A stretch of DNA of 64,000 nt from Geosiphon pyriformis uo1 (Eukaryota; Fungi; Glomeromycota). This document shows positions 1-35,269 of this stretch, piece by piece. The position numbers and the translations under genes are program-made. Each line of letters begins with the position of its first letter. Positions within the stretch are counted from its first letter, which is position 1. The notes beneath the pieces were generated by a model. It was given only the letters and a program-made list of their open reading frames with translations. It searched no databases and was not told the origin of the DNA. The DNA lies in the NCBI GenBank assembly GCA_016748015.1, contig JAAOMT010000697.1:256868-320867 (forward strand), in the 5' to 3' direction.

Positions 1-3000
1 TACAAGTCATTCCTTTGCTGGTAGAAATATTAAATTGGATATACCTTTTGGTCTGCAGTAGAAACATCATTATTACTTGTATCAAAAGTAAACAAAGGCG
101 AATCGGCCAAACCCGGTACAAGCCCCTCATTTGTTGCAACACTACCATTTGAGAAATCACCATTATCAATGGGATTATCTAAATCATCCATCGAATTTGA
201 GATGCCATCCTGTAGGCAGAAAATTATGGTTTTTTCCAAACCAGCAAGCATAATGTTGATATTCCAATCTGACCCAGTCGTATGAAAGCCTGTCCTAGTA
301 GAATCTATGATCCCAGTGGCTAAAGACTTTTCGTGGTGCTTTTCCATCTCCTCTTTCCATATTATTAACTGTTCGCACATGCATTGAAGTAAGGGGATTA
401 AAATAGTGTTAAAGGATTGTCTAAAGTATGGAAGTGAGTTTAAAATAAAATCCATCCATTGCTGGATCAAAGGTCTGTTTGAAGGAAGGGATAATGCTTG
501 AATTAGAACTTTTATAAGTGAAGGACAAATCCTAGGCGTTCGCACAGCTCGATGGTTTCCAAATGCTTCCTTTTCATCTTTTCTTGGTATCCTATCAGAT
601 AAAAATTGTTGAGAAGATGGCGCAATTTCCGAAATTGTGGGCTCAATTAATGGCGATCTTTTTGAAATGATACTTGAAGCAGGCGAAGAAGGTCTATGAT
701 GTGTTACGGGATTTGTTTTTGATGAAGATCCAATAATAATGATAGTAGAAAACAAAAGATGCAGAAGTCGTGCTTGCAAATCCAAACGTTTTGTTCGTAT
801 ACTATAGAGCATCTTACGCAACACAACATCATGAATCATAAGAACCAAATCAGCATCCACCAGCTCTGGTCGAGTAAGTAATATATTAAGCAAATCGGTG
901 GCATGAATTTGTATATATTCGTTTAATGTACTCATCGATGACAAAACCTCTGGCATTTCAGTTTCGATGTATCTCAAAGAAACTCTAATAAACAATTCTG
1001 TAAAGGAAATGTTTAAGGAAGAAGGAACCTCTTGGGAAAGCCAGTCACATTCTGCGAAAAATTCATACTTGGCAGTACCACTTCGCAAAGCTTTCAGAAA
1101 GCCCTGCCCACCGACCCTAGAAACTGTGAGCATAGTTTCAAAAACATATTTCACTTGAGCTTGGTTGAAAGGACGTGCATAGTAAAAAATTTCTAATAGC
1201 TCTTTATCGATTTCTATTTCAGAAATTCGGGATGTGATAGAAGGATCACAGATGATAGCGATTAAGGGATCTAGTAGTTTGGTATAACAATCTTGTTGGC
1301 ATCTTATCCATGTTTCACCGGCTCGACGATTTGTTGGATTCTCATCTCGAAGAGTATCTAGAATTAGAAACATTGGCTGAGAAAATTCTATGCTAATATT
1401 GCGATAATCGTCAGAAAGTCTCCAAAATATAGCAAAGCTTTCGTAAGAGGAAAGTCTAGCAATAGTGTCTTTTTGAATTAAATATTCCGCTATTATTGTC
1501 TCGACATACTTGGCTGGAGAGATTTGTTGAAGCATCCAAATAAGTTCAACAGTTCTCAAATGATACATAATGTTCTGAGGATTAAGAAATGACCATAACC
1601 TATCGACAATGATACGAGTTTGCTGCTTTGGCTCCAGTAATGATGGAGAAATAATTCGCTTTTCAACAATCAGATTAACAATAGTCGAAAGAGCCGAGTC
1701 GATTATATGAAAGTTATTGACCATATAGCAGCACTTAACCAACGAGTGGATCCAACCGCCATCAAAGAATTTAACTGTTATAAAACGCCGAACCTCAGTA
1801 GATTCGAATGGGTATGTGTTGAAATAAGTCGATATTTTCTTCAACAAAGTACAGCTTCGATCTAATACGGCAGTTATATGTGGTGACATGACGGAGTCGG
1901 TATATATGTGTTGCTGAATGATAAAACTGCTACTGGCGTTTTGAATAAAGTTCAAAAGAGCCTTGAGCAGCTCTTCCAACAGGGATAGTCCCTTTATGCC
2001 CTCGAACTCTTTACTGGCCAAGTTTTCATTTCCATAGAGGTAAAAATCACTGATATATTTGACGGGATCCATACCAGATGAAAATTTCAGTCTAGCATCA
2101 GACGTTTGATAAAAATTGGTTTGTTCTCCAGATGAAGCTTCCCAATTGAGGACCTCCTTTTGCTCGGATTTCAGTTCTGAATCAGAATTTTCATAATGAT
2201 GAAAAACCAAATAGGGAATTCTTTGCAGTAAATCGATTGCTAAAATCAGCGAGGTCCCTACTTGGGGCAAATATTCAATGAAATCTGAGCTATTTGCAAG
2301 TACCTATGAATGGAAAGCAGGTTATACAACACAGGAATCGGGTAAATATCATTATGATACATAAAATAGCTAGCGAATTACTTAAATAGCATACTTGCAG
2401 TTTGCATAGCAAAGCAATTAAGAACAATGGAATATGCATTCTTTGAATTTGTTCCTCATCCAATTTGAAGAAGTTCAATACAAACCCAACCAAATCTAAC
2501 GCCTAAAAAAATCGCTTCAGTAAGATTGGAAAAAACAAAAGTTAAGACAAAAAGAGTGATTCCCCACCGTTTTTCCTTTCTCATCGTGGCTAGGAAATTG
2601 ATCCTGCATTTGACCGTATAATTTCGACCAAAGGGTGTAAGGATCAATCATCTCCATAAACATATTCGCAGTTGGTAATAGCTACCAGAACAAAAAATGA
2701 GAAATAAATATTGAATAACCATTAAGAATCATACAAGAAATATTACCTCTTTGGAAAATTTGTGGGTTTTCAACGAGAGAAAAATATCAATAAGTATCTC
2801 TTGTACTATAGGTAATCCTATTTCCCATTTATCCATCAAAGATATCAGAATTTTATAGGGTCGTTGAGCAGTGTTGAGATCGCTTGAATTAGAAAAGAAT
2901 AAACTCTTGCGTCCAAATAATAGGTGATTAACGTTGGTACTTATAGAATTCATAAGCAAAAGGCATAAAAGGTGATTCCATTTAGATATATTTTAAATAC

Positions 3001-4563
3001 CCTGAGCGCAGCGACGATGGCTGATTTGGCGTATTCTTGAAAATGATAAATTTGTTGCTTGGAACCTTCTCCAGGGCCCAACAACCATGTATATAGCCAG
3101 CGATTTAATGACATATCTTTTCTCAAAACTACAGCAACTGCAGATTTCATCAACAAAATCAGATCCTCCTCTTTCATCATTCTGGAAAAAAAATTATATA
3201 ATGAGTTACATAAATAGAAAACAAATAAACAAATTAGGATCAAATCTACTCTCAAAACTTACTCCCCCACGTTCTTGTCTTTTAGCGGAAAGTTGGTAAC
3301 AAGTAAAATGAGAAGGTTTCGCCGTACCAAAATATTATTATCCCACAAGGTAGCCGAAAAAGCTCTAACAAGAAGGCTCACGTCATCACCAAGTACAACG
3401 GTCACATCTAATTTGACCAAATAAATGGTGAAAATGATGAATTGTGAGAATTCTTTTAGCGGCCATTACATAATTCACTTATCATTCACCATCTTCGGGA
3501 CGTTTTTTTAGAATCGCAAAAGCAACAAGAGGCATGATTCAAAATAAAAATAAAAATAAAATCAGTAGAACATACCTTCTTTGGAAGTGATTTTTGGCAT
3601 CCGGCGTTTTAAATAGTTCAAGGCAGGAATTCTCAAAGAGGGAGAGGTAATTAAGACAAGCCACATGCTTTGCATAAAAAACGATTGTTCAACTGTTCCA
3701 GATAGAAAATCGAGATGTGATAGTACCTGAAAATTTCAGAAAAAGTTATAGTTAAAATTGTGTTCAATAAGAGAAATTCCAAAATCAATAAAAAATATCT
3801 CGCAACCTTATCGAAAAATTCGCTACCCTCTTCGTCAAGCCCTGGCAATAAAGCAATAATGAAAGCCTTCATGACAGGTCGTAGCTTTCCACGTATTGGA
3901 AAGAAATATTTTTCGTATATCCCTAGCAATTGTGGCTGAATTGAATAAATTAATGTGAGAATTTGGAAGATATTGATTTATACATGTTAAATACGTATAA
4001 TGATAAATAAAAATCACCTTTACAGACATGGCAGCATATTGAAGGACTGGAAATAAGCCCTGTGAATATATTGCCAAATCTTCAACAAGATTATCCACCT
4101 ATTTTGGAAGATTTGATGGCTTCAATCAATAGAAGGGTATCTTCACGCCATAAAATGCATCAAAATTTGTCTTATGAACAGGGAGAATTTAAAATAAATC
4201 GAAAGCCATGACCAGGACTAACCCCTATACTCTGGAATATACACTCATAGACTTCCAAAGCTTTTTGATGAACTCCTGGCGGCAGGGCAGGGTTCAAGGA
4301 CTGTGCGAGGCGTTTGCCCACTAGGAGTTTCCTTGGTATTACATTAAACTGCTTGGCATTTGCTTGAAAAGCCTATAAAAATCAAAAATGGTTATTCGAG
4401 CCGTTTTTTGTCGACTTTTGAATTCACTTACCCTCAATAGCCTTCCCAAAAATGCACTAAAATCTGCCCACTCGTTAACCTCTTTATCAAAATAAAGCAG
4501 AATCTTCTCAACTGAGCTAACATATTTTTTGTAAGCTGGATTTTTTTGTAAATTTTGTTCCAT
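1..4563 (-). CDS. DOP1: Dopey/DOP1 family trafficking protein, multi-exon, 3' part runs off the left edge
   Basis: ATG at 4563. Spliced N-terminus MEQNLQKNPAYKKYVSSVEKILLYFDKEVNEWADFSAFLGRLL|AFQ...KRLAQSLNPALPPGVHQKALEVY matches Dopey_N. Later exons carry GLFPVLQYAAMSVK, ALLPGLDEEGSEFF and LRKDMSLNRWLYTWLLG. One ~2.2-kb exon (ORF 30-2270). GT-AG introns. Confidence 0.95.
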
Positions 4564-4701
4564 AGGGACGAGTGAAGACTTGAAAGCAAGGGAATTTAAA
4601 AATTGAATGTTATAATGAGGCAAGATCTTATTGCTTCACATGATTTTTGATACTATTTGTATGATCTGCTGCCAAAATTTCGGCTTTTTTTACCTCCTGA
4701 A
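4564..4701. promoter_or_regulatory. Very short divergent (bidirectional) promoter between DOP1 and MAK11
   Basis: Head-to-head ATGs at 4563 (-) and 4702 (+) leave 138 bp between them. Confidence 0.6.
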
Positions 4702-6358
4702 ATGATGCCTGCCAACCACAAGTCTCAATTAAAAAAAAGAAAACTTTCAAATAATTCCATCATTTCAAAAAAAGATAAAGCTCAAACAAAAAAGTTCCCT
4801 GTTTCTAAAAAGGCTAAAAGGGAGAAAGCGAATGATGAAGCAGTGAATAATAGTATTGATAATGATAACAGTAAGAAAACAAGAAAACTCGGCACAATTT
4901 GTTCCCCCACTCTGAGACGTGAAAGTTTTCGAATTATTGCTGGAAGCTATGAGCGCATTTTGTATGGTATAGATGCATATTGGATCAAACCGGAAGAGGA
5001 AGGCTTTGAAAATGTAATATAAACCATTAATTTTTTGTCAATTAATTTTTATATTGGCATCTATTTTCTACAAACTCGGTTGAATTTAGGAAAATCAGAA
5101 ATTGAAATTAGAACCCATTTTCATATTTCCTGCTCACAGTGGATGCATCAAAACAGTGGCGGTTGGAGGTCGATATCTTGCATCTGGTAGCTCAGATGAA
5201 TTGATCAAGTGTGTTATAGTCGTATTAGAACCTGCGTTTCTTTCTTGGGATATAATTATTGATTTTTAAAATACATATCTACAGATTATATGATCTCAAA
5301 AAAAGAAAAGAATATGGCTCGCTATGGCACCATCAAGGATCAATCACCTCACTTCAATTTTATAATGAAACCCATATGTTAAGTGGCAGCGAAGATGGAA
5401 CAGTTTGTATTTGGCGAACAAAAGATTGGGAATGTCTAATAACAAAGAAGGGTCACAAAGGACGTGTTAATTCCCTCGCTATTCATCCATCTGGGAAAAT
5501 TGCTTTATCGGTTTCCAAAGACAAGACTGTTGGACTGTGGAACTTGATGACGGGGCGTAAAGCAACTGCTCGTGGAATTGGAAGAGGTGAAATATCTTTC
5601 GATCTTTCAATAAGAAAAATCTTCAATTAAACAGATATCGATTTTTTTAGAAGGGGAAATAATCTCATGGAACACAATTGGTGATCAGTATGCTATTTTA
5701 ATAGCGAATGTGATTGAGATATATAATGTTGCAGTAAGTTTTCTTAATTTTTCATGAATTAAATTCTGGAATTTAAAAATCAATTTACTTGCATTTTTAG
5801 GATGCTAAGATCGTGCATAAATTTCAGCAGCGATCCCGATTTATTTGCATGAAATATTATTCCCACAGTGAGTTGGGAGAACTATTGATCACTGGTGGTG
5901 AAGATAAGATTATTAACATTTACAACACGAAAGATGGAACTTGCATGGTAACAATCTCTGGCCATCAAAATAGGTAGCATATCTTATTCATTTTCTAGGT
6001 CTATTATCTTCATCACTGGTTTTTATTAATAAAGATATTCTCAAAATTTAGAATCAAAGCTATTGATATAATAAACTTCAGCCCGAATGAAAATTCTTGT
6101 ACACAATTACCCCTTTTAGTTTCCGTTTCGTCCGATGGTGTTATTAACGTGTGGAATTTAGAAAAAGCTTTGAAATCTAGAGCTGAATCCAGCAAAGATC
6201 AAGACGATGAAAAGAAAGTTTTAGTTCAATCACCAACGTTTCAAACCCCTCTCGCCTCCTATGCTACCAAGAGTCGATTAACCTGTCTTGTATTGTCTGA
6301 TGTTCATTTCATCAAAAGTATCAATGATGCCCATGATAGTGAAGAGAACGGAGGGTAG
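4702..6358 (+). CDS. MAK11: WD40 60S ribosome biogenesis factor Mak11/PAK1IP1, multi-exon
   Basis: Lys-rich N-terminus, then FRIIAGSYERILYG, LEPIFIFPAHSGCIKTVAVGGRYLASGSSDELIK, LYDLKKRKEYGSLWHHQGSITSLQF and GHKGRVNSLAIHPSGKIALSVSKDKTVGLWNLMTGRKA. Ends ...SRLTCL...TAG at 6358. Confidence 0.93.
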
Positions 6359-6499
6359 GATTGATTTATCGAGAAAATAAGATCAAAGTTCGAGTACAAA
6401 AAACACTTCAATTCACTTCTTAAACTATATGTTTTGAAATCTTAGAATACTCTGAATTAACAATTTGGCATAGATATTCATAATTTCAAGCCATCACTG

Positions 6500-6592
6500 T
6501 TCGATTGGATTTGCAATCATGTAAAAAGCCAAGGTACATTTAGCGAAATATTGTCGCCAAACGCGTCTAATCAAAAATTTTAACATTTGAAG
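6500..6592 (+). promoter_or_regulatory. Candidate cell-cycle promoter elements upstream of shugoshin
   Basis: Reverse CCAAT (ATTGG 6504-6508), E2F-like TTTGGCGA on the - strand (6554-6561), MCB ACGCGT (6561-6566) and CHR-like TTTGAA (6586-6591). Confidence 0.35.
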
Positions 6593-6723
6593 CTTCGAAA
6601 AAAGCTAAGAATCATTACTAAATTCAATCAATTATCAATATCTTGATGATAAAACCTTTTCAGGAACACTAATTGTTAGTTCAGCTGAACCATCTTTTAC
6701 TTTTAACTAAGAGTTTGCCTACC

Positions 6724-8814
6724 ATGGAAACCTTGGAAGCAAGTATGAAACAACGAAAGAATATTTCTGCGGCTTTTCTAATTGAACTTACTAACATTTT
6801 TATACTTTCGTTGTATATTGTTAAACTTCAGTCAAGCGCAAACACATTAAGCAAAATCGCGCTATAATAAAGTATAATTCTTGTATTTAGCCTCAAAGAT
6901 CTAATATCAATTGGGTACTGTCAAATTGACCTCACAATTTTCTCCCAAAAGAAGTAACACTTTATATGCCATTCAACTTCGAAAGGCTGAAGTTGAAATA
7001 TCGCGACTTTCAATTGAGAATATTGAATTGAGAACGACAATTTCTCAGTTAACTGATCAAGTAGAAAAATTACAATGTGATCACGATCAAAGGAATTCCA
7101 CCAGCGATCTCTGTCAACCTTCTTTCAAAGTAATTTCAAATCAAATGAGAAATGTCTCTGAATGTCAATTTTCTTTGACAATTGATGAATTAGCTGGATA
7201 TATTTGAAAATTTTTCTAGGCAAAAAATGATCAAATAGCTGATATAATCCAACAACTTCGTTCGGCAACAGATTCTCTAAATGCATTGGTAGAAGCTGAT
7301 GCTCAAAAGCTTGTAGAAATTGACGATGGTATCAAAATTCTCTTTGAATTCTTCATGGATATCCTTGTTTATATCTTGGCTATGATCCAGAGTCTTTTTA
7401 ACCTAAATAGAGAACATTCTCGATCACAACTTCGCCGAACGATCGAGTGGAAACTCCGGAGTTTATAAATGCATAACTCCGGCAGAATTAGATATATGGG
7501 CCGAGAAAATACCAGATAAGAAGAAGCCATTGAATCTGGTGAACTCTCATAGATCTCATCGAAAATATTTCTTATTCTGTTTCAACGAGAATTCATGTTG
7601 GTCAACACTCGGCGGTATCTAGCTCACGATTTACCGAAAGCAGACAAAGCCCTTATCAGCCATCAAAGATGAGCCGGAAGAACCATTCATTGAAAAGGAG
7701 AATATGTTAAACTCGTATGAAATGATAAAATCCTATTTTTTAATTGATTTGTTGAACTAAGAGAATAATTCAACATTTGTACTAGCGGATACCCAGTCCA
7801 ATATGCAATAAATCCCCAAACTCTTCCGGATGAATCCCTTTCAGTTCGACCGGATACCTTGAATCCAAAAAATTATTCACTTTCCTCCAAACATGAAACC
7901 ATACCTAGCACCATTACTCAATATGAGGATAACCTGTCTCAAGTTCAACCAAATTCTTTCCAACTTGAGCATTTCGTTGATCATCTTGATGGGATAAATA
8001 AATCACTCCTGGCTGAAATTAACTTGTCTTCTGTTTGTGAATTCCCATCTTCTCAGCAATTTCAAGACCCTTCTCATCGACGCCAATCGCTCCCTCAGAT
8101 TGAATCATCTCAGATTGGATATATATCCCAAGAACATAATCCGTTTTTTTCTTCTCAATCTGATCTTAAATCAAAGCACGTTTACACCCCTCAACCGCAA
8201 CTGAAAAATACAAAATTCCAGAATTCTTCTATTAGGAGCACCTCAAATATGAGCGCCAAAAGTACAGGAAAACCCATTGATTTGGTTAAGGATATATCTC
8301 CTGCAGGTAAAAAGATTATTCAACAACGAATTGGATGCGTAGAGGATCAACCTTCAATAATCATCACCTCGAGTTCAAACAAGATTGAAGGTATCATCTA
8401 CGTAGCTTCTCTTATCGACCTACGCCGCATAATAATCCTTATTAGTTGTAGGCGAAGAACAAACTCGAACAAGAAGAAAACCTCAGATAAATTATACCGA
8501 GCCAAGCCTTCGCAGGTGAGATCCAAAAACATCTTTTCAAGCAAAAATCTCAAGATCATAAATAAAAATCTAATATCCCCATTCATCGTAGCAAATTGCG
8601 AAAAGGGGATCCATTCACAAATTCATTTGGAATCGCAGAATTTGATTTTACCAAAAGTGAACAACCCAAAAGAAAAAAATCGACGACTACGATAAAAAAG
8701 CGCACCGCTCTGTCCAATATTACCAACAGTAATATAAACCTTTTCTCAATTGGTTAAATTATTTTTGATCTTTTTGATAAAGCTTTTTGAATCATATTCA
8801 AAGTGACAGGATGA
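6724..8814 (+). CDS. SGO1: Shugoshin (centromeric cohesion protector), multi-exon
   Basis: Spliced N-terminal coiled coil METLEAIKRKHIKQNRAIIKSNTLYAIQLRKAEVEISRLSIENIELR. C-terminal SGO motif TRRKPQINYTEPSLR|SKLRKGDPF (8466-8606). The last small exon and stop at 8812-8814 are inferred. Confidence 0.88.
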
Positions 8815-8939
8815 AGACTTCAGCAGTAGCTAAAAAAAACCCCCCGATCATCTTGGAGTCGCAAGATTTGAAGTGCCCTATTTCAGTTTGATCAGAGGAT
8901 ACAGTTAAACGGAGTCGGATTTCGATTCAATTAAATATT

Positions 8940-9600
8940 TTTCTTAACAAAACTTTACAATGTTGTAGTCAAGTTCTTAAAAATAAGTTTGGCAAATGTT
9001 AAGACTAATAGCTTCTGTTCCTTTTGTTAAGTAGTAAATTAAGCTTTTAAGAAGATTGCATTTTACTTTTGTAATGTTGTAATTTCCAAAAAAATAGTTG
9101 TTGATTTGATTTTTAAAGTATTTGTAAAGTGTTTTCTTTACAATTACAATTCCATCTGGAATTCCAAATTTTGCTTGCAGTAAGTGTAAATTAACTGATA
9201 GTATTTTAGAGTTGTTGTATTAAAAGTGGTTACCACTTTGTATAACTTTTTGCTGTGTTAAATTTCTGGAAAAACACCAAATGTTACCAGAGATTTTGGT
9301 TGCTAATTTTGTTGTTAATAAAAACTATTAAATCTCTAATAAGTTATTTATCTCCAAAATATCTTTCTATATTTTGGATTAATGTAATATTGGACTTATG
9401 ATAAATGGTTAATTCTATATCAATAATTTTTAATGTAATTACTTTACAGTAAAAATCAATTCTTTTACAAAAAATTATTATAAAAATATTTTTTTTAAGC
9501 CAAAAATAACTAATTTGATTTATTAAAATTAATAATTAATTAATGAACAAATTTTGGTTTTTCAAATAAAAATTTTTTTTTTGATTTGTAATAATTAATT
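8940..9600 (-). mobile_element. Decayed 5' end of an LTR-B-family element (gag start, PBS, 5' LTR)
   Basis: 9130-9300 aligns by eye to 18860-19026. Decayed PBS ...AACACCA-AA precedes TGTTACCAG at 9282. 9330-9470 resembles LTR-B at 19090-19230. Confidence 0.75.
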
Positions 9601-11100
9601 ATAAAATTAATAATTTTAAAATAAAATATTTTTTTTAAAAAAAAGCTTTTTTTATATATTTAATTATAATATTATTTTAAGTTTTAACACTTTTTTTTCA
9701 TTAATATTTATATAATCTTTTAAAAATTACATGTATATTTTAAATATAATTGTAAAAAACTTTTTTTTTGTATTTTTATAATAATAATTAAAGCAAAAAA
9801 TAAAAAAATTGCAATTTTTTATTTTTTAAACTATTTATAATTATTAAAACTGCTTAATAATGTTTTATAAAAGTGTTTTCTTAAATAAATTAATAATAAA
9901 TTAGCTTTTTGTTAATTCTAAAGCATTATTTTTATCTTAAATTAAAAGTTTTTTTTAAAATTATTTTAATATAGTTTTTGTTTTGGTCAAAAATTTTAAA
10001 AAAGCTAATAATTAAATTATTATTTATTATTATTATTATTTTTATTATTTTTATTGTTTAAATAGTTAAAAAAACCAGATTAATTTTTTTAAAATATTAA
10101 AAATTTTTTTTTAAAGTCTTGTTTTTATGTTTAAAGTTAGTTTTTTTGGCTTTTTTGGTAATTTTGCATTATTTACACTAATTATAATACTTAATTTTAT
10201 TATAATAATAAATAAAAATTTATTTTAAATAATAATAACAAAAACATATTAATTATTCTTAGTTTAAATTAATTTTTATATTATTTAATATATTGATTTT
10301 TAACCAATTTTTTCCAATTTTAAAAGCAAAACAAATTAAATATTTGTATGTGTTTTTATCTATTTAATTTATTAAATTATTTTAATTTTAAAGATTAAGT
10401 TAATTAAAAGTATTTTTTGTTTTTTGATAATATTGTTTTTAATAATATTTAAAAAACTAATATTAATTATTAAAAATTTTTTAAATAAGTAATTATTACT
10501 TTAGTGTTTAATGTTTTTTAAAATCAAATTAGGTTATATTAAAACTGCTTTCTAATTTATACATAATTTTGTTAATATAAAATTAATATTTAAAAACAAT
10601 ATAAAGCTTTTTTGTATAAAATTTGTATTTAAATTTTTTTAAATATTGTTTTTTGTTTAAGTTTATTAATTTTATTTATTTTTTCACTTTAAAATTGTTA
10701 AATTTTTAGTAATTTCTGAATTTGCATTTTTTTATCATTATTGTTTTACAAAATATATATTAAAAATATTTTAGTATTTTTAATAAAATTTTTTAAGTTA
10801 AAATTTGCTAATATTTAATAATATATTATTGTTAAGTTATTTTATATATTTATAACTGTTTTTACTTATTAATTAATTTTAATTATAAAAAATAATATCA
10901 AAATTTTTTTTTATTAATTAAAAAAAATTATTGTTTTTTATGATATATTAAAACCAAATTGGTTAATTTTTTTTAATTATAGATTATAATTATATTTATT
11001 TATTTTTTTTATTTTATTAATAGCTAAAATATTTAATTATTATTTTTAATGTTTAAAAAAAACTTAGGTTTTTTAAGTTTATAATTAAATTTGTTTTATT
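9600..11100. repeat. Extremely AT-rich, unidentifiable transposon relic
   Basis: About 90% AT, no CpG seen, no ORFs. Similar tracts at 43.0-44.0, 50.7-51.3 and 62.7-63.6 kb. Confidence 0.6.
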
Positions 11101-11166
11101 TTTTATTTTTCTAATTTTTTTAATAATAATAATATATAACAATATACTCTTTATCTCTTTAATTTT

Positions 11167-12997: not shown

Positions 12998-13908
12998 TGT
13001 TACAGATGATTCTTTGGGGTGTTGAGTGAATAACAAATTTGTAACTTGGTGCTCAAAATGATTAGTGACAATGATAATTTGAAGGTATTTTATCTGAAGG
13101 TTTTCCAATCGAGTTTTTTGTATAATGGACAGAGATTCAATGGTAACAGTTTATTAGTAGTTTCTTGAAACTGTAGTTTTGTCAATTGTTTGCTCAGCTT
13201 GATGGTTGATGATTCTTCTGATATAATATCTTCCATAAGTGTATACCAGTGCTGTTTCCTGATGTCAGTTTCTCTGTAAGTTCTCTAAGACTAAGTATTG
13301 TTTAAGCAAGTTTATTCCTCCATAAGTCCTCCAAAAGTAAGTATTGTTTAAGTAAGTTTTATTCTTCCATAAGTCTTCCAAGAGTAAATTCTTTAATCAA
13401 GTTAGTAGACAACAAAAAAAATAAAGAAAAAATAAAAGAAAAAATAAGAAATAAGCCAAGATGATTTGCAAGTTAGTATCCTATCAATAGCCATGATTAA
13501 GAGCTATTGTTCCAGTATGGTTAAGTATCAGTTACTATTAACATAAAGTGTTAATAGTGAAGAATGAATTTAATATAGCAAATAATTATTTATTTGAGGA
13601 TTGTGGTAACTAAGCTAAGGATTCTTGGTGTCGATTCTGTCTTTTCTACTTCTAATGCTATTGCTATATATACATATTTGAGATTCCTTAATTCTTCAAT
13701 TCCTTGTGACAAGAATCCTGCAATTCCTGATGAGAGGAATTCTGGAATTCTGGAATCTTGTGATTTCTCATCAAAGAATCTTGAAATTTCTGGAATTCTG
13801 CAATTCTTCTGAGAGGAATCCTGGAATTCCACATTTACTATGTCTATTTCTGATTGGCTAATCTCTACTTGCTAATAATAATATACTTCCTCTATTCTAT
13901 GAGTAACA
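12998..13908 (-). repeat. 3' LTR of element A
   Basis: Runs TGTTACA...GTAACA and is a direct repeat of 24546-25385. Contains a ~46-bp tandem repeat (13275-13390) and a GGAATTCT-type array (13680-13830). Confidence 0.93.
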
Positions 13909-13924
13909 TTATTCCCTTCTTTTA
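13909..13924 (-). other. Polypurine tract of element A
   Basis: The - strand reads AAAAGAAGGGAATAA immediately before the LTR's TGTTAC. Confidence 0.8.
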
Positions 13925-14730
13925 ATATTGAGCTCTATCGAAATCTAACTCTTTTAATTCCCCCTTTTGAATTATTTCTTGAACTTTTTTTTTGAGTATT
14001 ACTTGTGTTATTTGAGTTTGTAGCTCTTCAAATTGGGCATTAATCATTTTCCCCAATTAATTACTCATAATTGTATCCATTGCTGTATTGAGTAAGATTT
14101 CTGGTTGGTCTTGAAATCCCATATATAGCCAGTAAATGGCTCGAGCTTGTGTGGTTAGATTGTTCTTTTCCACAAATTGTTCCAGTTGTCTCAGTATTGT
14201 TGTGTCAAATAACCATTTTGTTTTGTCGGTGTACAAATTCTGGATATTTACATGTTGTTCCAAGTGAAAATGACAATAGTTTTTCGGAAATTGTTGTGTC
14301 CACTAAGTCTAAGTTTCTCTGGTAAGTTCTTGGTATAATCCGACTATTTGTTGTTCTTTCATGGCCAATTTTATCTTGGTCATAATCTTGTCAACAATAT
14401 TTTCAAGTTTTCTTTGTATTTTGTGTTGTGGTATTCTTGCAGTACTTTTGTATCGAATGGTTTGTTAATTGATTGTAATTTCCATCTCCTAGTGTTGGAT
14501 TAATTGAAAGATTTGTTGTGCTAATGAATAGATGTTGTTGGTAATTTCCATTTTTCTGCATTTTTTTTCTATCGCATTGACTATGCCTTTATATATTCTT
14601 TCTGTCAATTAATTGGACATGTTGTTATAAATAATGATAATTGGTTCCAGATCTCGTGGAATCTCATCTGGTTGGACTAGTATTCTCTGTATTCTCAATT
14701 GTAGAATATTACTGGTGGATGATAATACTA
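13924..14730 (-). pseudogene. Extra ORF of unknown function in the env position of element A
   Basis: Essentially one reading frame of ~265 codons (one homopolymer run uncertain): ...QRILVQPDEIPRDLEP...QQFPKNYCHFHLEQHV...AIYWLYMGFQDQPEILL...KELDFDRAQY*. Broken by TAA/TAG codons compatible with Gln codons. Ends at the PPT. Confidence 0.7.
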
Positions 14731-14859
14731 TATAATGGGTTTTGAGCAAGTGTAAATTTTGTGATGTTCTCCAAAAGGTGAAATGGTAATTGGCTGAAGA
14801 AGTTGAAGAATCTAGTAAGATTCATTTTGTGTATTAAGAACTATGTTTACTGGAACTGT

Positions 14860-15610
14860 AAATCGTCCAGTTGAACCAAAACCTTGAGTTCCTCTTTCAC
14901 TTTTTCCCAATTGTTCTCTGTTGTTTACTGATTGTAAACCCGAAATGTTAATTAAAGGTAAGTAAATTGCTTAAGCAATTTTTTCAGCATGTTCAATTTT
15001 GAATGGTTTGTCTGTCTCATTCTGTAACATGATGGTAATGTCTCCAGTGTATCCTGCATCTATAACTCCTCCTCTAATATTGATTTCTTTGCTTGCCAAT
15101 GATGATCTGGAGGCAATTTAAACCATTGCTCCTGGTGGAATTTCAAGAGCAATTTTTATATTGATTTTTGTCAAAGACTTTGGTTGGAGAATCAAAGTAT
15201 CTTTTCCTGGGTATCTTAAGTCATATCCAGCATCAATTTCGTGTGCTTTTTCTGGTCTGATTCCTTGGCCATGGTTGTCAAAATATTTNNNNNNNNNNNN
15301 NNNNNNNNTGTTCAATTTTGAATGGTTTGTCTGTCTCATTCTGTAACATGATGGTAATGTCTCCAGTGTATCCTGCATCTATAACTCCTCCTCTAATATT
15401 GATTTCTTTGCTTGCCAATGATGATCTGGAGGCAATTTAAACCATTGCTCCTGGTGGAATTTCAAGAGCAATTTTTATATTGATTTTTGTCAAAGACTTT
15501 GGTTGGAGAATCAAAGTATCTTTTCCTGGGTATCTCAAGTCATATCCAGCATCAATTTCGTGTGCTTTTTCTGGTCTGATTCCTTGGCCATGGTTGTCAA
15601 AATATTTAAG
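14860..15610 (-). pseudogene. Trimeric dUTPase domain of element B
   Basis: All five motifs present: DAGYDL, ASRSSLA, GGVIDAGYTG, KIA(Q>*)A and ERGTQGFGSTG. Partly repeated across the N gap. Confidence 0.92.
15289..15308. other. Assembly gap (20 N) flanked by a 299-bp near-identical overlap
   Basis: 14990-15288 repeats as 15309-15607, with one C/T difference seen. Confidence 0.95.
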
Positions 15611-18600
15611 TTGTAGAGGTGGTTGCTTTTCAAGAAGATAGATGGGAGTGGTTGGTAGTTCTTCTACTTGTTCAGATACTTCAAATTCAATTTCATTTTC
15701 ATCATTTTCATCTGGCAGAGGAATGCTAAGAGCATAACATTCTAAACACTATTGGTCATCACAAGACATAACACATTCTTCACACAATTGAATGTTCATT
15801 TGCTCTAATCATTGAATTTGAGCTTCTTTGGTCGGATATGTGTGGCTTGCAATTTGGTGGTAGGTTTCTACTTCATCTTCATAATCAAATCCAGCTAATT
15901 CCATGGTGTACTCAATATATTCAGCTTCTTTCATTTGGTGGACATCTTCTTGAATGGCTCCATTGATTAATGCCATTGCTAGGTCAAAAATCATTTCAGC
16001 ATTATGAGGGTAGTGGTAAAGTTTATTAAGAGCACTGTTGTATGCTGCATCAAATGGTGTCCTTCTTCTGACTTTTTCCAAAATTGATAGAGCATATTGA
16101 CAGGTTTGATCACATACTCCTCCTTTCATTGCTACATCAATCCAATTGTATTCTTCTGGTAGTATTTCTCCACATGTAAAGCAAAGTGTGTTGTCCCATT
16201 TTTCATTTCTTTTTGGAGATCCAAATCATTCTCTATGGCATGCTTTGCAAAAGTAATAGGTACGAGTTTCATATTCCTCTTCTGGAGAAATACATGCTCC
16301 CATTGATAAAAGTTTTTTGTTGCAATCTTTGCATTTGAGTGGAATATAAAGTGGTTGTTTCTGTGGTTCTGGTGTAGAATATCTAACTTTCTTCCATCCC
16401 CTTGATTCTTTGAAAATCTTTTGTTCAGTTTCTTCAGCCCAATTGAATGTTGATCCAAGAGCCATGTAGGTTTCAGTAAGTGGCATTTCTTTCTCCTCTT
16501 TAAATTCAAATACTAGAGCTTTTTCTGATTGTTTGTTAAAAGTACCACAGGTTGCAGGTACTATGGTATATTGTCCTTGGTATGAGATTTTAAGTTCTTG
16601 AGTTTCCCAGTTCAGGTTTGCATTGGCCTTGAGAAGCCAATCATTTCCAACTAGAGCTTGGTATTGGGGTGCATCTATAACAAGAACTTTAACTGGAATG
16701 GTGATTCTATCAATTGAAAAAGAGAAATTATCAATTTCTCCTACTGGAGTCTTCTTCATACCATCAGCTGTGACAATAACTGTTTGAGCTGGTTTGTCTA
16801 TGTTTCGTTTGAGTTGTTGCATCAGCTGGTAAGTGATGATACTTCCAGCTGATCCACTATCTAAGATTAAGCGAATGGGTTTTCCTTTCACTGTAGCTTC
16901 TGTGTACATGGCAGTAATTGCTTTCTGTTCATTGACTGCTGTATTACTAAGCAGAAATGGTGATTCATTTGCCTCAAATTCAAATGGAAATATATCTGAC
17001 AGATTAGCATTTTGGGCAATTTGAGCTGGAGGAATGGTGTGGTTGGAAGAGTTTGATCTTGGTGCTGCAATTTCACCTTCAGAAAGTGCAGTTTGTTGAA
17101 AATCCGATTCCTCTGGTATTGTAAGATAACTGGGTTGAGTGTGATAGTAATTGGGTCTTTGCTAGCCTGAATTTCGGGGAACCAACTGGTTATTTGGATT
17201 GATTCTGTTGTGGTTATTCTGCAATTAATTTTGGGATGTGGATTGGTTATGTTGAACCAATCTTCTTACTGGTACTGGATATTGTTGAATGGGTGGTGTC
17301 TAATATGGCTGAATTGGTAAAGGTTGCTGATATTGTTGCTGCATTGATTGTGGAGCTGGTGGATAGTAACTGTTTTGATTTTGTGGCCTTGGTGAATAAT
17401 AAGTTGGTAGTGGATATTGGTAATAGAATTGTTGTAGTGAAGAGTAATGTTGATTACTCCTGTTTTGTTGGTCTCTTTGTAATTTCCTACAATCTCGTTT
17501 CCAGTGTCCTGGAATTCCACAATAATGACAATTTTGAGATTGGTTGTTAGATGAGGATCCAAAATTGTTTTGGTTGCATTGTTGTGGGGGTTGATATCTT
17601 TGTGGTTGTTGTGGCTGTTGTTGTTGGTTTGTGAAATAGCTTTCAACTTTTTTTGTGAGTTGGTCTATCTTTTTTTCAGCTGCTGAGCTGGTTTCTCCAA
17701 TTGCAAGATTTACAAGCTTGGTGTGATTTGCTTTTTCCATTGCCATTTCATAGCTCTTTGCCTGTTTAATAACAGTTGCTAAGTCTGCTGGAACATGTGG
17801 ACAGACTTTCTTAATCAGTTTGTCTTTTAACCCTGCTATAAACTGATTCAGAATTTGAGCATCAGAATAGTAGTCATTGGTTTCCAATTGTCGGATTCAT
17901 CTGAGAAGTTTGTTAAATCTTCCAAGATAGGTCATAACAGATTTAGATGTTTCTTGTTTGATATTGCGAAAGTGGTTTCTGAGAGTGATAGAGATATTGT
18001 TGTTGGTGAATTGTTGTAGGAAAGCATCTTTGAATGCTTGCCAGTTTTCAAATGGTTCTTCTAAATTTTCAAATCATTCTCCTGCTGTTCTTTGGAGAAA
18101 GTAGGGAATTGCTTTAAGCATTCTTGCTGCAATCCAACCATTTGCATCTCCTGCTTTTTGAACTTTGTCAAGCCATTCTTGGGGACTGGTATCATTGTCT
18201 TTACCAATGAATTCTGGGATTTTTGCAATGTAAGCAGTTGCCATTTCTTCTTCGTTTTCTGGAAATTCTTCTAGTTCTGATTCAGTTTCCTTACTTTCCA
18301 AGCTTTCTGAGTGATTACTTTTGTTTTCCTGTAAGTAATTAATGATATTGGTACTTGTTGATATTGGTTCCTGCTGTTAAGTAGGATTTCTAGATAACTG
18401 AAAATCTTCTGGTCTGGAGAAATGGCTAAGTGGTGAACTTGGTGTTTATGGTTGAACAAGTGAAATTGGAAATAATGTAATAGAAAGTGGTAATTTGACA
18501 CTGGTTCCTTGTTCAGGTGTTTGCAAGTGTTTGGCAGTTGTCTTTTGTAGTGTTGTAGTGTTTGGAGTGGTTCTTGAGTATTGCTTCAATCTTTGTTTGC

Positions 18601-19006
18601 CTTTATTGCTTGTTTCTGTTTCTGATTCAAAGTCAAAAGAGTATTTGGACTGTACTGGGTATTTTTCTTCACAATACTTAATAATATTAAAATTAAGTTC
18701 TTGGAAGTAGGTAGCAAGTGTTTCACTGTTCAGGTTTTCTGTTTTCAAATGTGAATAATGCACTAGATTATTGTAGAGGTTGCTTCTAACTTCTGAAATG
18801 TTGTAGTTTCCAAAAAGATAATTGTTGATATGGTTTTCAATGTATTAGTATACTGATTTCTTTACAATTTCAATTCCGTCTGGAATGTTGAATCTTTGCT
18901 TGCAGTGAGTGTAAATTGACTGGTAATACTCTAGAGTTGCTGTGTTTGGTGTGATTGCTACTTTGAATTTGTTGTTGCTGTGTTATTTCCATGGGAGAGC
19001 ACCAAA

Positions 19007-20019
19007 TGTTATCAGAGGTTTTTGGTCTCTTTTCTTAAATGTTGGTAATGTTGATTTGCTGTGAATTTACGTTTTCAAGAAGTAGTTGAACCTCCAATAA
19101 CTGAATTTATCTTCAAATTATCTCTTATAATTTGAACTACTGGGCTTATAAGTGGAATGGCCAATTCCTTGCCAGTTACTTTATGTAGTTACGTTGTAGT
19201 AAATGTCAACTCTTTCCCAAGAATTGTTCATCTGGAAGCTTACTAAAAATGTGTAGTTACTTTGCTGTGAAAGTCAACTCTTCTACAGGAATCTTGTCTG
19301 TAGGCTACCCTAATGATTATAATAAGAAAAATAAAAGAAAATAAAAGAAATATAAAAGAAATAGAATTTTATCAAAAGAAACGTTTTCTATCCAGGCCTG
19401 AAGTCACTAACAGTTTACTGAAATTGGTAGCTAATCAATTTCAAAATGTTAGTTGGGTTTTGGGGATTTTCCAAGTACAATAATTAAAGAATTTGGTTTT
19501 TCGAATTATTTGATATTTATTTTTTTTTGTGTATATAGGAACAGTTTTTAAGAGATAAATCTAAAATAAGATACATTTTCCAGAAAAGAAAAGCTCTTCT
19601 TTTATACAACTTGTTGTAGTACTAGTTTATGAACTTGCACTTTTTCTCTTTGTCCAAATTCCAGCAAACTAAAGATACATTTTAATGAACTACAAGTTAT
19701 TTTGCTGAACTATTGATTAATTTGGGTGAACTATTCATAATTTCGGTGAATTTCTGTAAATTTCAGTGAATTTCTTATAAATTTCGGTGAATTTCTGTAA
19801 ATTTCGGCGAATTTTTGAATGTTACAAAGTTCAGGGTATTGTGTAATTTAATCATCTTACTTTCTGTTATACTAATTAGATTATTTTAATTGAATTGTGA
19901 TATGTAATAATTGATTAAATAATAAATGATAATTTGAAATGACATTAATATACTAATGAATTATAGGAATTATAAGAGTAATTTCATGCTAATTAATAGC
20001 TAAAATTCTACTGGTAACA
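19007..20019 (-). repeat. 5' LTR of element B
   Basis: TG...CA ends with short inverted termini. Reverse-complement homolog of the solo LTR at 35547-36519. Contains ~20-bp tandem repeats at 19735-19820. Confidence 0.9.
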
Positions 20020-23000
20020 ATGTGATATTGACATATCCACAAAGCTGTGAAAAGTCCGAAATGGTGCTTGGTGGTTGATCTTCTATTTCAGTGCTTAAGT
20101 ATCCAATGGTGGTTCCAGCTAGTATTACTATAACATTTCTTGTGTTATTATAGATGGAAATTTTGATGTGGCTATAATCTTTGACTGGTATATAGAGATT
20201 GATGAGTTTAATTTCTCTTGATTTACAAAGAGTTGTTTCTGCTTCAAAAATCTGATTCTGTTCTTTTACTTTCCACTTTATTCCTACCATGTACTGGCCA
20301 TATGATGAAATGGAAATTGCTTGACCCGTTAAGATAATTTCTCCTTGGTCAACAATTTCTTCTTCTGCCATATTGACTGGTACATCTATTCTACCCGTTG
20401 ATCTAAATCCCTATATTCCTCTTGCTGTTATCCTTAATTCCTCCCTATTTCCTACTAATACTAACTGAGCTATTTTCACCAGAGACAGGAATATTCCCTG
20501 TGCTATTTTTTTGTTTGGCTCTATGATATAGGCCTTTTTAGAGTCATTTTGTAGCATAACAATGATATTTTTTACATATATTCTGCATCAATTATTTCTC
20601 CTTTTATATTAATCCCTCTTTTCACTAAACTACTCCTAGATGCTAGTTGAACCATTGTTGTTACTGGAATTTCCAGTGCTACTTTTAGATCTATGCAGGT
20701 GTGTGAATGTGGTTCCAATTTTATAACATTTTTTTCAGGATATCTCAGATCAAACCCAGCATCAGTATTGTGTACATGTTCTGACATAATACCTTCATTA
20801 TTGTCACTATACCATTTCAACTCCTGTTCTTTGAAGAGGTCTGACAGTGCAATGTATTGTTCATATTTTGGGTTGGAGTTTGAATCTGAGTTGGAATCGT
20901 CATCATTGTTATTACCAATTTAAATGGAGCTGGAACCAGTGTTTTCATTGTCATTATTGTCAGAGTTTGAATCAGGATCAAATGGTGATTCCAATTCGGA
21001 TGTGCAGCTGCTGATTGGTTTAATTTCCTCCAGGATTGTGTAAATCATGCATGGTAGTGGATTGTAAATGAGGTCACACTTATTACAATATTGGAAGTCA
21101 CAAGGAATCAAACAGTAGTCACATAATCGGGTGTTTAGTTGTTCTAAATGCTGCTCTTGCTCTTCTCTTGTAGGTGCCAAATTTTGGTAGTATTTGTGGA
21201 AGTCTTCTGGACTTGTTTTTTCATTCATAAAAGCATCTGGGTTAGAAATATGAATGATATTGACCAGTTCTGGAGGATTGTTCTTAATTTTCAGTATTTT
21301 ACTGGGTATAGCATCTTCTATTTTGGCGTTGGCCATTTGCCAGATCTTCTCTTCATCATGGGAGTAACCATCTAAACGATTGAGTGCTCAGTGCCATGCT
21401 GCTGTAATTGGAGTACCACGACTCACCCAGTTACTAATAAGGATAGTGTATTGACACAAAGTGTTACATGTTCTTTCTTAACCAGGAATGTCATTCCACA
21501 TTCCTTCGTCGAGCAGTTGTTTGCTGCAAATGAAACATGATTTGTTGTCCCACTTGCCTTGTTATTTTGGATAGCCATAGCATTTTTTATGACAAGGTTT
21601 GCAATAATAGTGGGTTTGCGTTCAATGGTCCTTATCTAGCACAATTCAGACTCCCATAAAAGAAAGTTTCTTCCCACAGTCTTTGCACTTGAGCAGTATG
21701 TATGGCGATTATGGCAGTGGCTCATGAATGGAGTATAAACAAGTCCAGCCACTGGTGGTGTCTTTTGTTGATTCAGTTTCCTCCAGTATGTTGTCTTCTC
21801 TTTTCTTTCCTTTCCTTTTTTCTTCTTAACTTAGTGTAGATGACAACTCATTTTGGTTGTCATCAATCCAAGTGCCAATGGTAGTTTTCCAGATATGTTC
21901 TTCTTTCTGCTTTCCTTTTTTATGGTCGTCTTCATCTCAGACAAATATGGGCAGCAGTTCATTGTGCTCAACGTCAGCCCACGAAACCTGATACGCTTTT
22001 CATATTGGTTTCTTTGCTTCCTCCTCAAATTTGATTAGTGGCTGCAAGTTGGTTGGTTTAAAGTGGCCACATACTGCTGGTGCTCGAGTATGTTGACTGT
22101 TTTGGTTCAGTTGGAGCTCTTGCATTATTCAATTGAGTACAATATTTGTTTTGGATAGCCAATTATTTCCAACAAGAGCTTGGTACTAAGTAGCTTCCAT
22201 CACAAGGACTTTGATGAGTACTGTAATGTTGTTAATTTCGATAGGTAGGTTGTCTATTTCACCTATTTGAGTTTTGGTTGCTCCATCAGCTGTAATGATC
22301 CTTGCACTGGCAGCTTGGTCAACTCAGTAATCTAATTGATCCATGAGTTGCCTTGTTATGATGTTGTCAGCTAATCTACTATCTAAGATCAATTTGATAG
22401 CATGGCCATCAATTTTGGCATCTGTATATATGGCAGTGATTGGCTTCTTTTCAAGAGCTGCTCTACTGAACAACAGGATTTCAATTGTTTCTTCCAAGTC
22501 AAAGGGAAAGATGGCTGCAAGCAATTCATTGTTGGTGACAGTTGCTGGTAGAATGTTGTTAGTAAGTGCTTGTTGTTGGTTGGATCCCAAATTGTTGGTG
22601 GTGGCATCTTTTGGAGTAACCAAGAGACTTAAATAGTTCTGGGAATTCGATTTTGGGTTTAGAATCAGAGATCGGGGTTTTGATGTTGATTTCCTGATCA
22701 TCGGTTATAAGTGTTGCAGTTGGCTTTTATGTGACTTTGTTTACCACAGTTGTGACAGACACATGTTTTCTGCTGCCATGGTTGATTAATTAACAATGAT
22801 GGACATGTTTGATTTTGGAAATGATTGGCATTTCCCTGATTACTGCATCTTTGAAGAGGTTGATAAATGGACTGATGGTTGTTAGCTAAGTATCTCTTGA
22901 TTTTCTGATTGATGATATCACTGATTTGCTTCAATTTGGAATCCAAATCAAATGATCTATTCATTATTAAATTTACAGCTTGAGCGTGGTTGGCTTCTAG

Positions 23001-24545
23001 CTCAGCTGATTCAAAATCTCTGGTGTGTGTGACTGTGACTTGAAAATTGGCTGGGTGTAATGGACATATGTGTTGTAAAATACTACTGCACAGACCACAA
23101 ATAAACTGGTTGAGGATCTGGGGTTCTGTGAAATACACAGCATCAATGGCTTGAATTTGGCATAGGACTTTATAAAAGTATTCTAGATATGTTGTAACTG
23201 CTTCAGTATTATTCTGTTTGATTGTGGTAAAAGTATTGGCTAGACAATTAATACTGTTATTGTTGCTAAAATATCTCAGAAAGGCAGTTTTGAATTGTTA
23301 AAATGTTTGTGGTCTGGTGGCTAAACTCTGGTACCAAGAATTGGCAGTTTTTTTGAAAAAATATGGTATTGCCTGTAGGGCTCTGGCGTCATCTTAATTG
23401 TTTGCTATGATGGCCTTGGAGATGTCATTGATCTATGCTTGAGCGTCATTTTCTTCACCGGTAAAGTTTTCTAACTTTGTGATGGATGCATAGGCCATTT
23501 GGTTTATGTTTAGTTGTTGTGGTAGCTGTTGAAGTGGTTGTTGTTGCATGGGTTGTTGGGGTGGTAGTTGAAGTGGCTGCTGTATGAGTTCAGCTATTGA
23601 ATTAATTGGTGGTTGATTAATGATAATTACTAGAGGTAAGTTTTGTTGATTTATTAAATCAGAGTTCTGATTGTTTTGATTTTGCTGAGTTCTAATATTC
23701 GGAGTTTCAATTTCTGGATTTTCTATGTTTGGATTTCATGGAGTTTGAACATTTGGGGTTCTGAATTTTGAGTTTTCTGAGATCGGGTTTTGGTAAGTGA
23801 ATCCTTGATTTTCACTTCCTTCCTTTTTTTCCTCTGATAATTCCCATGGAGTAACAGCTCCGAAATCTGGTTGGGGTAGTGGTGATTGAATTCCTGATGA
23901 CATTGGGGATCATGATTTAAATCCTTCAAAATATGCACCATATAGTCCTAGTAAGTCTTTTTTTTATTGTTTGCTTTGGAACTGAAATTTTCCAAATGTT
24001 GATATCACATTTGATATGGACACATCTGCTGATGAAATGTTAATGGTGCTTCCAAATGTGTAGTGATATGATGGAGCGGTTGGTGATTTTACTCTGTGTT
24101 TCTTCCAACTAGGTAACTGTATTCTTTTTGGTGTTGCTGCTGGTGTTTGTATTTTTCCTTTACCTTTGTCTGCATAGGTAATAGGAAATTGTTGTTGCAT
24201 GTATCTTTCAATGGTTTGATTAATTTCCCTAATAATTGGGGCGAAACTGTGATTTCTTGGTAAGCTGGTGTGTTAAAATAATTCTGTATAGAAATTTTCT
24301 CTTGCTGACTTGATATTAACGGTTCCTCCTAAACAGTTTGTGATTTTATCATTAACGTAATAGTTGAAGGCTAATTCGGCTGAGTAGTGATTACTGTTTA
24401 ATCCTAATTGTTGGCTGTATTGTTGAAACAAGAATTTTGCAAATCCTAAGTGGTTGACTTCTATAATTTCTGATTCTGCCACATTTGGATGGTGTGTTGT
24501 TGGTGCTGGTTCTCTGTAGGATTATACCTCACAGAGAGCACCAAA
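20020..24545 (-). pseudogene. Element A gag-protease-Cys-rich-dUTPase polyprotein, decayed
   Basis: Gag (YFTEPQILNQFICGL), knuckle CHNCGKQSHIKANC, protease IKLILDS...ALVGNNWL, dUTPase DAGFDLRYP...ASRSSLV...GEIIDAEY...GFRSTG (20390-20820). Cut at 20020 by LTR-B. Confidence 0.88.
24534..24543 (-). other. Primer-binding site TGGTGCTCTC (same sequence in element B at 18995-19004)
   Basis: Lies 2 nt inside the 5' LTR and is complementary to a tRNA ending GAGAGCA-CCA. The tRNA was not identified. Confidence 0.85.
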
Positions 24546-25385
24546 TGTTACAGGTGATTCTTTGGAGTGTTAAGTAAATAACAAACTCATAACTTGGTGC
24601 TCAAAGTAATTAGTGACAATGATAATCTGAAGATATTTTATCTGAAGATTTTCTAATCGAGTTTTTTGTATAATAGACAGAAATTCAATGGTAACAGTTT
24701 ATTAGTAGTTTTCTGAAACCATAGTTTCGTTAATTGCTTGCTCAGTTTGATGGTTGATGATTCTCCTGGTACAATATTCTCCATAAGTGTATACCAGTGC
24801 TGTTTCCTGACATTAGTTCCTCCGTAAGTCCTCCAAGAGTAAGTATTGTTTAAGCAAGTTTATTTTTCCATAAGTCTTTTAAGAGTAAGTATTGTTTAAG
24901 TAAGTTTTATTTCTCCATAAGTTCTCTAAGAGTAAATCCTTTAATCAAGTTAGTAGACAATAAAGAAAAAATAAAAGAGAAAATAAGAAATAAGCCAAGG
25001 TGATTTACAAGTTAGTATCCTGTCAATAGCCGTGATCAAAAGCTATTGTTCCAGTATGATTAAATATTAGTTACTATCAACACTTCATGTTGATAGTAAA
25101 GAATGAATTTGATATAGTGAATAATTATTTATTTGAGGATTGTGATAACTAAGCTAAGAATTCTTGGTGTTGATTCTGTTTTTTCTGTTTTTAACACTAC
25201 TGTTATATATACATATTTGAGATTCCTCAATTCTTCAATTCCTTGTGACAGAAATCCTGGGATTCTTGGAATCTTGTGATTCCTGATAAGAGGAATTCTG
25301 AAATTCCACATTTACTACATCTACTTCTGATTGGCTAATCTCTACTTGCTAATAATAATATACTTCCTTTATTTTATGAGTAACA
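24546..25385 (-). repeat. 5' LTR of element A
   Basis: Direct repeat of 12998-13908, about 70 bp shorter in the GAATTC array. Confidence 0.93.

Positions 25386-26028: not shown

Positions 26029-26029
<1 letters not shown>

Positions 26030-26089
<60 letters not shown>

Positions 26090-35238: not shown

Positions 35239-35269
<31 letters not shown>

Follow-up and report, generated by a model that had tools for sequence, protein, structure and literature searches.

Context-dependent C>T erosion of transposons in a Geosiphon pyriformis locus and a candidate DIM-2-like methyltransferase

Introduction

The 64-kb stretch of Geosiphon pyriformis DNA that was analyzed here (contig JAAOMT010000697.1; hereafter the window) raises the question of which process has removed cytosines, in CpG and in other contexts, from a block of extremely AT-rich DNA at positions 9481–10080. 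The original prediction, which was made from the sequence alone, was a RIP-like C>T hypermutation that is restricted to repeats, is not limited to CpG, spares GpC and follows a context rule of its own. We examined the layout of the locus, the direction and context of the substitutions, and the presence of a candidate enzyme.

Results

Layout of the window

The exon at 30–2303 showed 100% identity to Dopey of Geosiphon pyriformis (Glomeromycotina), the next matches being those of Ambispora at 55%. Gene islands at 1–8700 and 44050–50600 are set amid nested remnants of Gypsy, LINE-like and DDE elements (Table 1). Judged by alignment, the block 9481–10080 is an eroded Gypsy LTR passing into an eroded LINE copy: the tile 9400–9899 had its top match in the LTR at 19007–20019 (score 105 versus 41 for shuffled sequence) and the tile 9900–10399 in the LINE sequence at 11140–12997 (102 versus 49). 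The LTR that begins at 9282 aligned with copies at 19007, 36521 (inverted) and 53619, an eroded primer-binding-site-like sequence was observed immediately left of its terminus, and CpG disappears within ~50 bp of the element edge at 8950.

Further structural features were as follows. The second LTR (19007–20019) separates the two sets of Gypsy internal regions, in both of which a dUTPase-like frame follows the protease (15437–15748 and 20572–20919, with a Pfam match for the second). An exact 299-bp duplicate at 14990–15607, flanking a 20-N gap (15289–15308), is probably a scaffolding overlap. A metagenome scan with the gag-protease ORF as query found no relative. Within the GC-richer LINE-like copy, an RT-like region was located at 39602–40450 (RVT_1, E 0.012, below the Pfam cut-off), and a DDE_3 transposase-like fragment, also below the Pfam cut-off, was found at 34320–34649 inside the 21%-GC block 30000–35000. 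Long (ATT)n/(AAT)n tracts lie at 26028–26092 and 35190–35280, within eroded transposon DNA. The host gene at 6720–8700 has introns and a coiled-coil-like start and gave no Pfam match; it resembles shugoshin and may be a shugoshin-like gene.

Table 1. Positions of transposon copies and host-gene controls in the 64-kb window
Feature	Position	Strand	Remarks
Block of the original prediction	9481..10080		9.3% GC, eroded transposon DNA; first ~250 bp an LTR copy; end towards eroded LINE copy; middle without assignment
Eroded 5' LTR of a Ty3/Gypsy element	9282..9720	-	Terminus TGTTAC at 9282; right end approximate; aligns to 19007-19650 and 36521-36050
Truncated internal part of the Gypsy element of LTR 9282..9720	8919..9281	-	Homologous to 18643-19006; CpG vanishes here beside the host gene
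Eroded tandem LINE-like copy, ~10% GC	10243..10975	+	Copy of 11620-12385 (32% GC); score 548 versus shuffled 43-57
3' LTR of Gypsy insertion, TG...CA ends	12998..13908	-	Left target-site copy CTGG at 12994-12997
5' LTR of the same insertion as 12998..13908	24546..25385	-	Right target-site copy TTGG at 25386-25389; the pair is the cleanest post-insertion mutation record
Gypsy internal regions, two sets	14000..24545	-	gag, zinc knuckle, aspartyl protease, dUTPase; CpG o/e 0.1-0.2
Further copy of LTR 19007-20019, inverted relative to it	35547..36521		Forms the second young pair
LINE-like copy, GC-richer (34%), broken frames	36420..42890	+	Proxy for the ancestral state
Eroded LINE copies, 16-17% GC	51300..56000		Include eroded LTR copy 53619-54107
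Eroded LINE copy, 15-19% GC	60100..62100	-	
Control host genes: Dopey, WD40 protein, third gene	1..8700		CpG and TpC kept
Control host genes: M20 peptidase, DDX23-like DEAD-box helicase	44050..50600		CpG and TpC kept

Composition and repeat specificity

The dinucleotide counts given for 9481–10080 in the original prediction proved exact (CG 0, GC 8, AC+GT 25, TC+GA 11, at 9.3% G+C). A count of eight GC was reached by none of 20,000 mononucleotide shuffles (mean 1.3), and the modest gap of 14 between AC/GT and TC/GA compared with a shuffle mean of 0.26 (p 0.029). The lack of CG is not significant by itself in so AT-rich a block (1.3 expected, p 0.25). The other tiles with GC of at most 14% (7,000 bp) displayed observed/expected (o/e) ratios of 0.13 for CpG, 2.33 for GpC, 1.19 for ApC and 0.60 for TpC; the corresponding values in the gene blocks 1–8700 and 44000–50200 were 0.81 and 0.94 for CpG, 1.09 and 0.99 for GpC, and 1.18 and 1.09 for TpC. 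No TpC deficit was seen in the moderately AT-rich blocks 30000–35000 and 56000–60000 (0.99 and 0.95), though CpG was lost there (0.09 and 0.12) and GpC stood at 1.41 and 1.47. In the eroded tiles CCA survives (o/e 2.4) and CCT does not (0.4).

With a scoring scheme tolerant of C>T and G>A, 27 of the 31 AT-rich 500-bp tiles matched a transposon copy of the window at scores of at least 89 (shuffled 38–62); four were left without assignment, and none of the 31 had a gene as its top match. Introns (~1.3 kb, hand-picked, some with inexact boundaries, short or failed picks being dropped) had 27% GC and ratios of 0.88 for CpG, 0.92 for GpC, 0.72 for ApC and 1.21 for TpC, and intergenic/UTR DNA (1.7 kb) was similar in composition. 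The TC:AC counts were 154:91 in introns versus 252:514 in eroded tiles (p 2e-16). Relics of ~10% GC lie beside copies of 34% GC, and the borders towards genes are sharp. As had been proposed, the C>T erosion is confined to repeats and spares genes and introns, a confinement demonstrated by composition rather than by the substitution spectrum. At third codon positions, a comparison that was informative for CpG and not for the other contexts, host genes had TY 0.30 and AY 0.26 versus TY 0.30 and AY 0.39 in transposon ORFs, and CpG occurred at 61/217 host positions versus 8/323.

The coding changes noted earlier in the transposon ORFs were borne out when GC-richer ORFs were compared with eroded copies over codons aligned without transversion or gap: D>N affected 27 of 37 Asp codons and E>K 22 of 26 Glu codons, and stop codons had replaced Gln at 5/9 and Trp at 5/8 positions.

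Direction of the substitutions

The two LTRs at 12998–13908 and 24546–25385 were most likely identical at the start, since they possess TG...CA ends and a CTGG/TTGG target duplication and since the reading frame that the insertion interrupts is open and in register on both flanks; the pairing is read with the caveat that the scaffold gap 15289–15308 lies between them, and the insertion junction was spanned by no copy in the window. The target duplication (12994–12997 and 25386–25389) has undergone mutation too and is consistent with a CCGG that has decayed. Over 842 columns the LTR pair differed by 90 transitions and 6 transversions. Among the 88 transitions with scorable context, CpG cytosines accounted for 16 (of 22 present) and non-CpG cytosines for 72 (of 269). 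Non-CpG C>T at 27% of sites, set against transversions at 0.7% of columns, points to an increase specific to cytosine transitions.

Contigs from public runs gave the same picture for the family. In run X1, 12,264 contigs fell on 12900–14000, where 204 of the 220 variable places were transitions, and the family majority was C or G in 21 of the 27 displayed rows at which the window has T or A (40 of 228 rows displayed). Between 24715 and 24835 all 18 variable places in the family-wide contigs were transitions, each fitting an ancestral C or G. In these data contig depth does not equal copy number, copies below 80% identity are excluded, the existence of subfamilies means that sites are not independent of one another, and the source sample may itself be X1. 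The few contigs of runs X2 and X3 (13014–13407) were GC-richer than the LTR of the window (T>C at 17 and 20 places), with CpG in their loose ends, as if derived from a little-eroded copy.

Overall, the changes are polarised as C>T on both strands and arose after insertion. Both strands were changed in both LTRs (28+13 and 25+24), and C>T and G>A were interleaved in each of four copies (run tests, p 0.06, 0.20, 0.57 and 0.83), although many rounds of mutation would blur strand runs. Where both cytosines of a CC pair had changed in the young LTR pairs, the changes lay in opposite copies 12 times versus 4 times in the same copy (p 0.08), a tendency that a simple TpC-sequential model does not predict.

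Sequence context of cytosine loss

Beyond CpG, loss depended on the 5' base. In the LTR pair, cytosines differed at 38/106 TpC, 14/52 CpC, 14/79 ApC and 6/32 GpC sites (TpC versus 20/111 RpC, p 0.0035), and pooling of the two young pairs gave 71/195 TpC versus 44/222 RpC (p 0.0002). ApC and GpC were lost alike (p 1.0 in the LTR pair, 0.59 in the pooled young pairs). In nine older pairs, for which an already eroded copy serves as ancestor, the cytosines of the GC-richer copy were lost at 295/363 TpC, 163/226 CpC, 205/347 ApC and 131/224 GpC sites; all of these alignments come from within one 64-kb window and from contigs of public runs. Family-wide at 24740–24802, with edge sites dropped for low cover, a loss of at least 4% was recorded at 10/13 YpC versus 3/13 RpC sites (p 0.017).

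Examination of trinucleotides in the young pairs revealed RCA as the slowest class (11/75) and YCY as the fastest (57/169), with TCC (22/54) and TCA (29/76) the fastest non-CpG trinucleotides starting with T. No preference for CpA was detected either in the older pairs (CA 69%, CC 63%, CT 70%) or in the young ones (25%, 38% and 24%), and the loss of CpG showed no preference for a 5' T in a small sample (ACG 16/21, TCG 10/17). The order of loss is therefore CpG > TpC > CpC > ApC and GpC, with a rate at TpC roughly double that at ApC or GpC. The erosion is not CpG-limited and does have its own context rule, in which cytosines after a pyrimidine, T above all, are the fastest to go.

Simulations, in which GC-richer copies were eroded to 10% GC, reproduced most of this composition. 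With relative rates taken from the LTR pair (5' T 2.2, C 1.5, A 1, G 1), the ratios obtained were 2.39 for GpC, 1.31 for ApC and 0.55 for TpC versus observed values of 2.57, 1.18 and 0.58, the exception being CpC (0.92 simulated, 1.32 observed). Uniform loss left all contexts at about 1.0, unlike the observed values, and sparing of GpC alone led to 4.5 for GpC, 0.78 for ApC and 0.84 for TpC. The excess of GpC accordingly follows from the 5'-pyrimidine, mainly TpC, preference, GpC being a slow context on both strands. In the original prediction GpC was held to be over-retained and TpC depleted, and both hold; a special sparing of each GpC site does not, given the equal loss of ApC and GpC and the outcome of the simulations. 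A small extra protection of GpC may nonetheless exist (43% versus 58% lost in old pairs under a strict filter).

A DIM-2-like methyltransferase in Geosiphon

An exhaustive HMMER search with a DIM-2-like protein of Jimgerdemannia placed the G. pyriformis protein G9A89_014285 fifth (E 1.3e-74), and proteins of Ambispora, Acaulospora, Basidiobolus and Dentiscutata ranked below it among the matches named (10 of the 150 listed). When methylases of Jimgerdemannia served as queries in two word-indexed protein searches, no match from Glomeromycotina emerged; since the exhaustive search did find Glomeromycotina proteins, these blanks are sensitivity failures. G9A89_014285 has RFD-like, DUF7893, BAH and C5-methylase domains, the same as in ascomycete proteins named Dim-2, and retains the catalytic motifs FCGGG, SPCQGFS, ENV and QTRRRV. 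Its best PDB match was 9BAQ, the Neurospora DIM2 (228 bits versus 174 for DNMT1). In a quick tree of 36 methylase domains, which held no named fungal DNMT1, a Glomeromycotina clade (99) fell in a weakly resolved, open group (86% SH-aLRT) with Mucoromycotina and ascomycete DIM-2, apart from a plant MET1-like clade (100). A DIM-2-like candidate with intact catalytic motifs, for which the original prediction had suggested a search, thus exists in Geosiphon. The accessible text of PMC8298701 reports both RID and DIM-2 in the AMF clade, and excerpts of PMC7862722 and PMC13297926 note DIM-2 in early-diverging fungi.

Discussion

A proposed link between repeat mutagenesis and non-CG methylation

The feature is real, and it probably reflects a repeat mutagenesis of the DIM-2/RIP type, a process from which this subphylum had been considered free. 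We favor, with a probability of roughly 0.55, the reading that non-CG methylation linked to DIM-2 drives a cumulative C>T decay of Geosiphon repeats. A DIM-2-like methyltransferase would methylate repeats in all contexts within heterochromatin, and the methylated cytosines would be deaminated or mis-repaired during vegetative growth, so that C>T changes accumulate mitotically. The TpC bias would then reflect a flanking preference of the enzyme or of the repair step, and CG methylation as in Rhizophagus would account for the loss of CpG. Copies would slide from ~35% to ~10% GC, an end state in which GpC is left over because it is a slow context on both strands. The enzyme is likely connected with the erosion, the connection being made through the presence of the gene.

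Several observations weigh against the DIM-2 reading. Dentiscutata and Acaulospora, relatives of Gigaspora, have DIM-2-like genes as well, and the accessible part of 10.1101/2021.03.30.436303 states that neither Gigaspora margarita nor Mucoromycotina yielded detectable RIP signatures. The Dim2 preferences described in excerpts of PMC8016269 relate to the base that follows the cytosine (CA in Zymoseptoria and CT in Neurospora), which counts against it since the rule in Geosiphon concerns the 5' base. The blocks at 30000–35000 and 56000–60000, which lack a TpC deficit, count against it as well, as does the tendency of double changes in CC pairs to fall in opposite copies.

Repair, RIP and deamination as less likely explanations

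An unlikely alternative dispenses with non-CG methylation: CpG decay would be joined by a C>T rate that is raised throughout closed chromatin, where cytosine damage at dipyrimidines, spontaneous or linked to UV, would be repaired less well, and old copies would drift to an AT-rich equilibrium. The trinucleotide order, with RCA (a non-dipyrimidine context) slowest and YCY fastest, is what dipyrimidine damage leads one to expect; the twofold context effect is modest, and the most eroded copies are the older ones, as their many transversions and gaps indicate. Tandem CC>TT changes are a hallmark of UV, however, and they were not in excess (the 4 same-copy versus 12 opposite-copy cases above). The non-CpG C>T changes of the LTR pair dwarf its transversions, and introns at 27% GC have TpC in excess, both of which speak against such a general process.

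True RIP, in which duplications are detected by premeiotic pairing and bursts of C>T, set off by a RID-type protein, fall on TpC rather than CpA, appears rather improbable. It would explain the near-pure C:G>T:A spectrum, the confinement to repeats with sharp borders next to genes and the ~10% GC relics beside 34% copies, and it gains from the RID reported for the clade. The CpA preference is absent, though, the interleaving of C>T and G>A within each copy differs from strand-coordinated runs (subject to the blurring mentioned), and CpG is the fastest context, as in methylation decay; furthermore, a survey across the fungal kingdom places repeat-enriched signatures almost exclusively in ascomycetes (PMC12543289, in its accessible parts). 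The term RIP-like, used in the original prediction, consequently suits the outcome and not the canonical features, as there is no CpA bias, the run tests on four copies gave no significant strand-coordinated runs (with the same proviso about blurring), and RIP indices are near zero (for six AT-rich blocks, product index 1.05–1.14 and substrate index 0.76–1.08). TpC is the target of several APOBEC3 enzymes, and the rapid loss of TCC and TCA would suit a TpC-preferring, APOBEC-like cytidine deaminase that acts on transposon DNA or reverse transcripts to make the non-CpG changes, but this is the least probable source, as both strands of both LTRs are changed without significant strand runs, unlike single-strand editing, and RpC sites also change heavily.

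Comparison with known systems

The DIM-2 reading has its closest parallel in Zymoseptoria tritici, in which, according to the accessible text of PMC8016269, Dim2 increases the mitotic rate of C>T in repeats by a factor of more than ten, no sexual cycle being needed. The two systems share transposon-confined C>T, mutation at non-CG sites and the presence of a DIM-2-family methyltransferase. The same text describes CpA as the Zymoseptoria target, with no high mutation rate at CpG and very little methylation of CpT, whereas in Geosiphon CpG is fastest, the 3' base among A, C and T matters little and a 5' T matters. Causation was tested in Zymoseptoria (PMC8016269, same parts) and is inferred in Geosiphon, which belongs to a different phylum.

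Canonical RIP, which is RID-dependent and CpA-directed in Neurospora crassa and other Pezizomycotina (PMC12543289, excerpts), likewise produces C:G>T:A in repeats on both strands, and AT-rich relics, nonsense and E>K/D>N changes and the sparing of genes are common to both; Geosiphon departs from it in the context and index features given above, and its strand runs were not significant in the four copies. Transposons of Pucciniomycotina (rusts and relatives) undergo a strict TpCpG hypermutation, as described in the accessible text of PMC3318451. In Geosiphon, too, a 5' T raises C>T in the repeats of a fungus outside Ascomycota, but the effect falls on non-CpG cytosines and the loss of CpG shows no T preference (small sample). 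The CG methylation of transposons in Rhizophagus irregularis, of the same subphylum (10.1101/2021.03.30.436303, accessible part), would explain the CpG loss and does not account for the loss of most non-CpG cytosines.

A broader proposal, which we advance tentatively and at somewhat less than even odds, is that Geosiphon possesses an active RIP-equivalent genome defence outside Dikarya, in which an ancient mutator of the DIM-2 type, or one assisted by RID, follows a 5'-TpC rule that standard RIP indices overlook and turns transposons into 10%-GC relics; repeat-directed mutagenesis would then go back to the ancestor of terrestrial fungi, and its target rules would differ from lineage to lineage.

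Relation to previous reports and implications

No report of C>T erosion of repeats in Geosiphon or AMF was found in the literature searched, from which subscription papers, including the genome paper, were out of scope. RIP is mentioned 0 times in PMC11952901, which treats AMF transposons including those of Geosiphon; in PMC12543289, Geosiphon is not named in the main text as far as accessible, and 12 of the 19 supplement files contain neither Geosiphon nor Ambispora.

The Geosiphon and Gigaspora genome papers may bear on the question of novelty. Indices based on CpA miss the Geosiphon context, and screens that use them would under-call genome defence in early-diverging fungi. The erosion is also relevant to the question of how symbionts that are presumed to be asexual keep transposons in check when they have no premeiotic RIP step, and dating by LTR divergence in the Geosiphon lineage would badly overestimate ages.

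A minor observation concerns the Jimgerdemannia gene models, in one of which the C-terminal part of a DNA methylase is joined to Dopey; two neighboring genes were probably merged by annotation.
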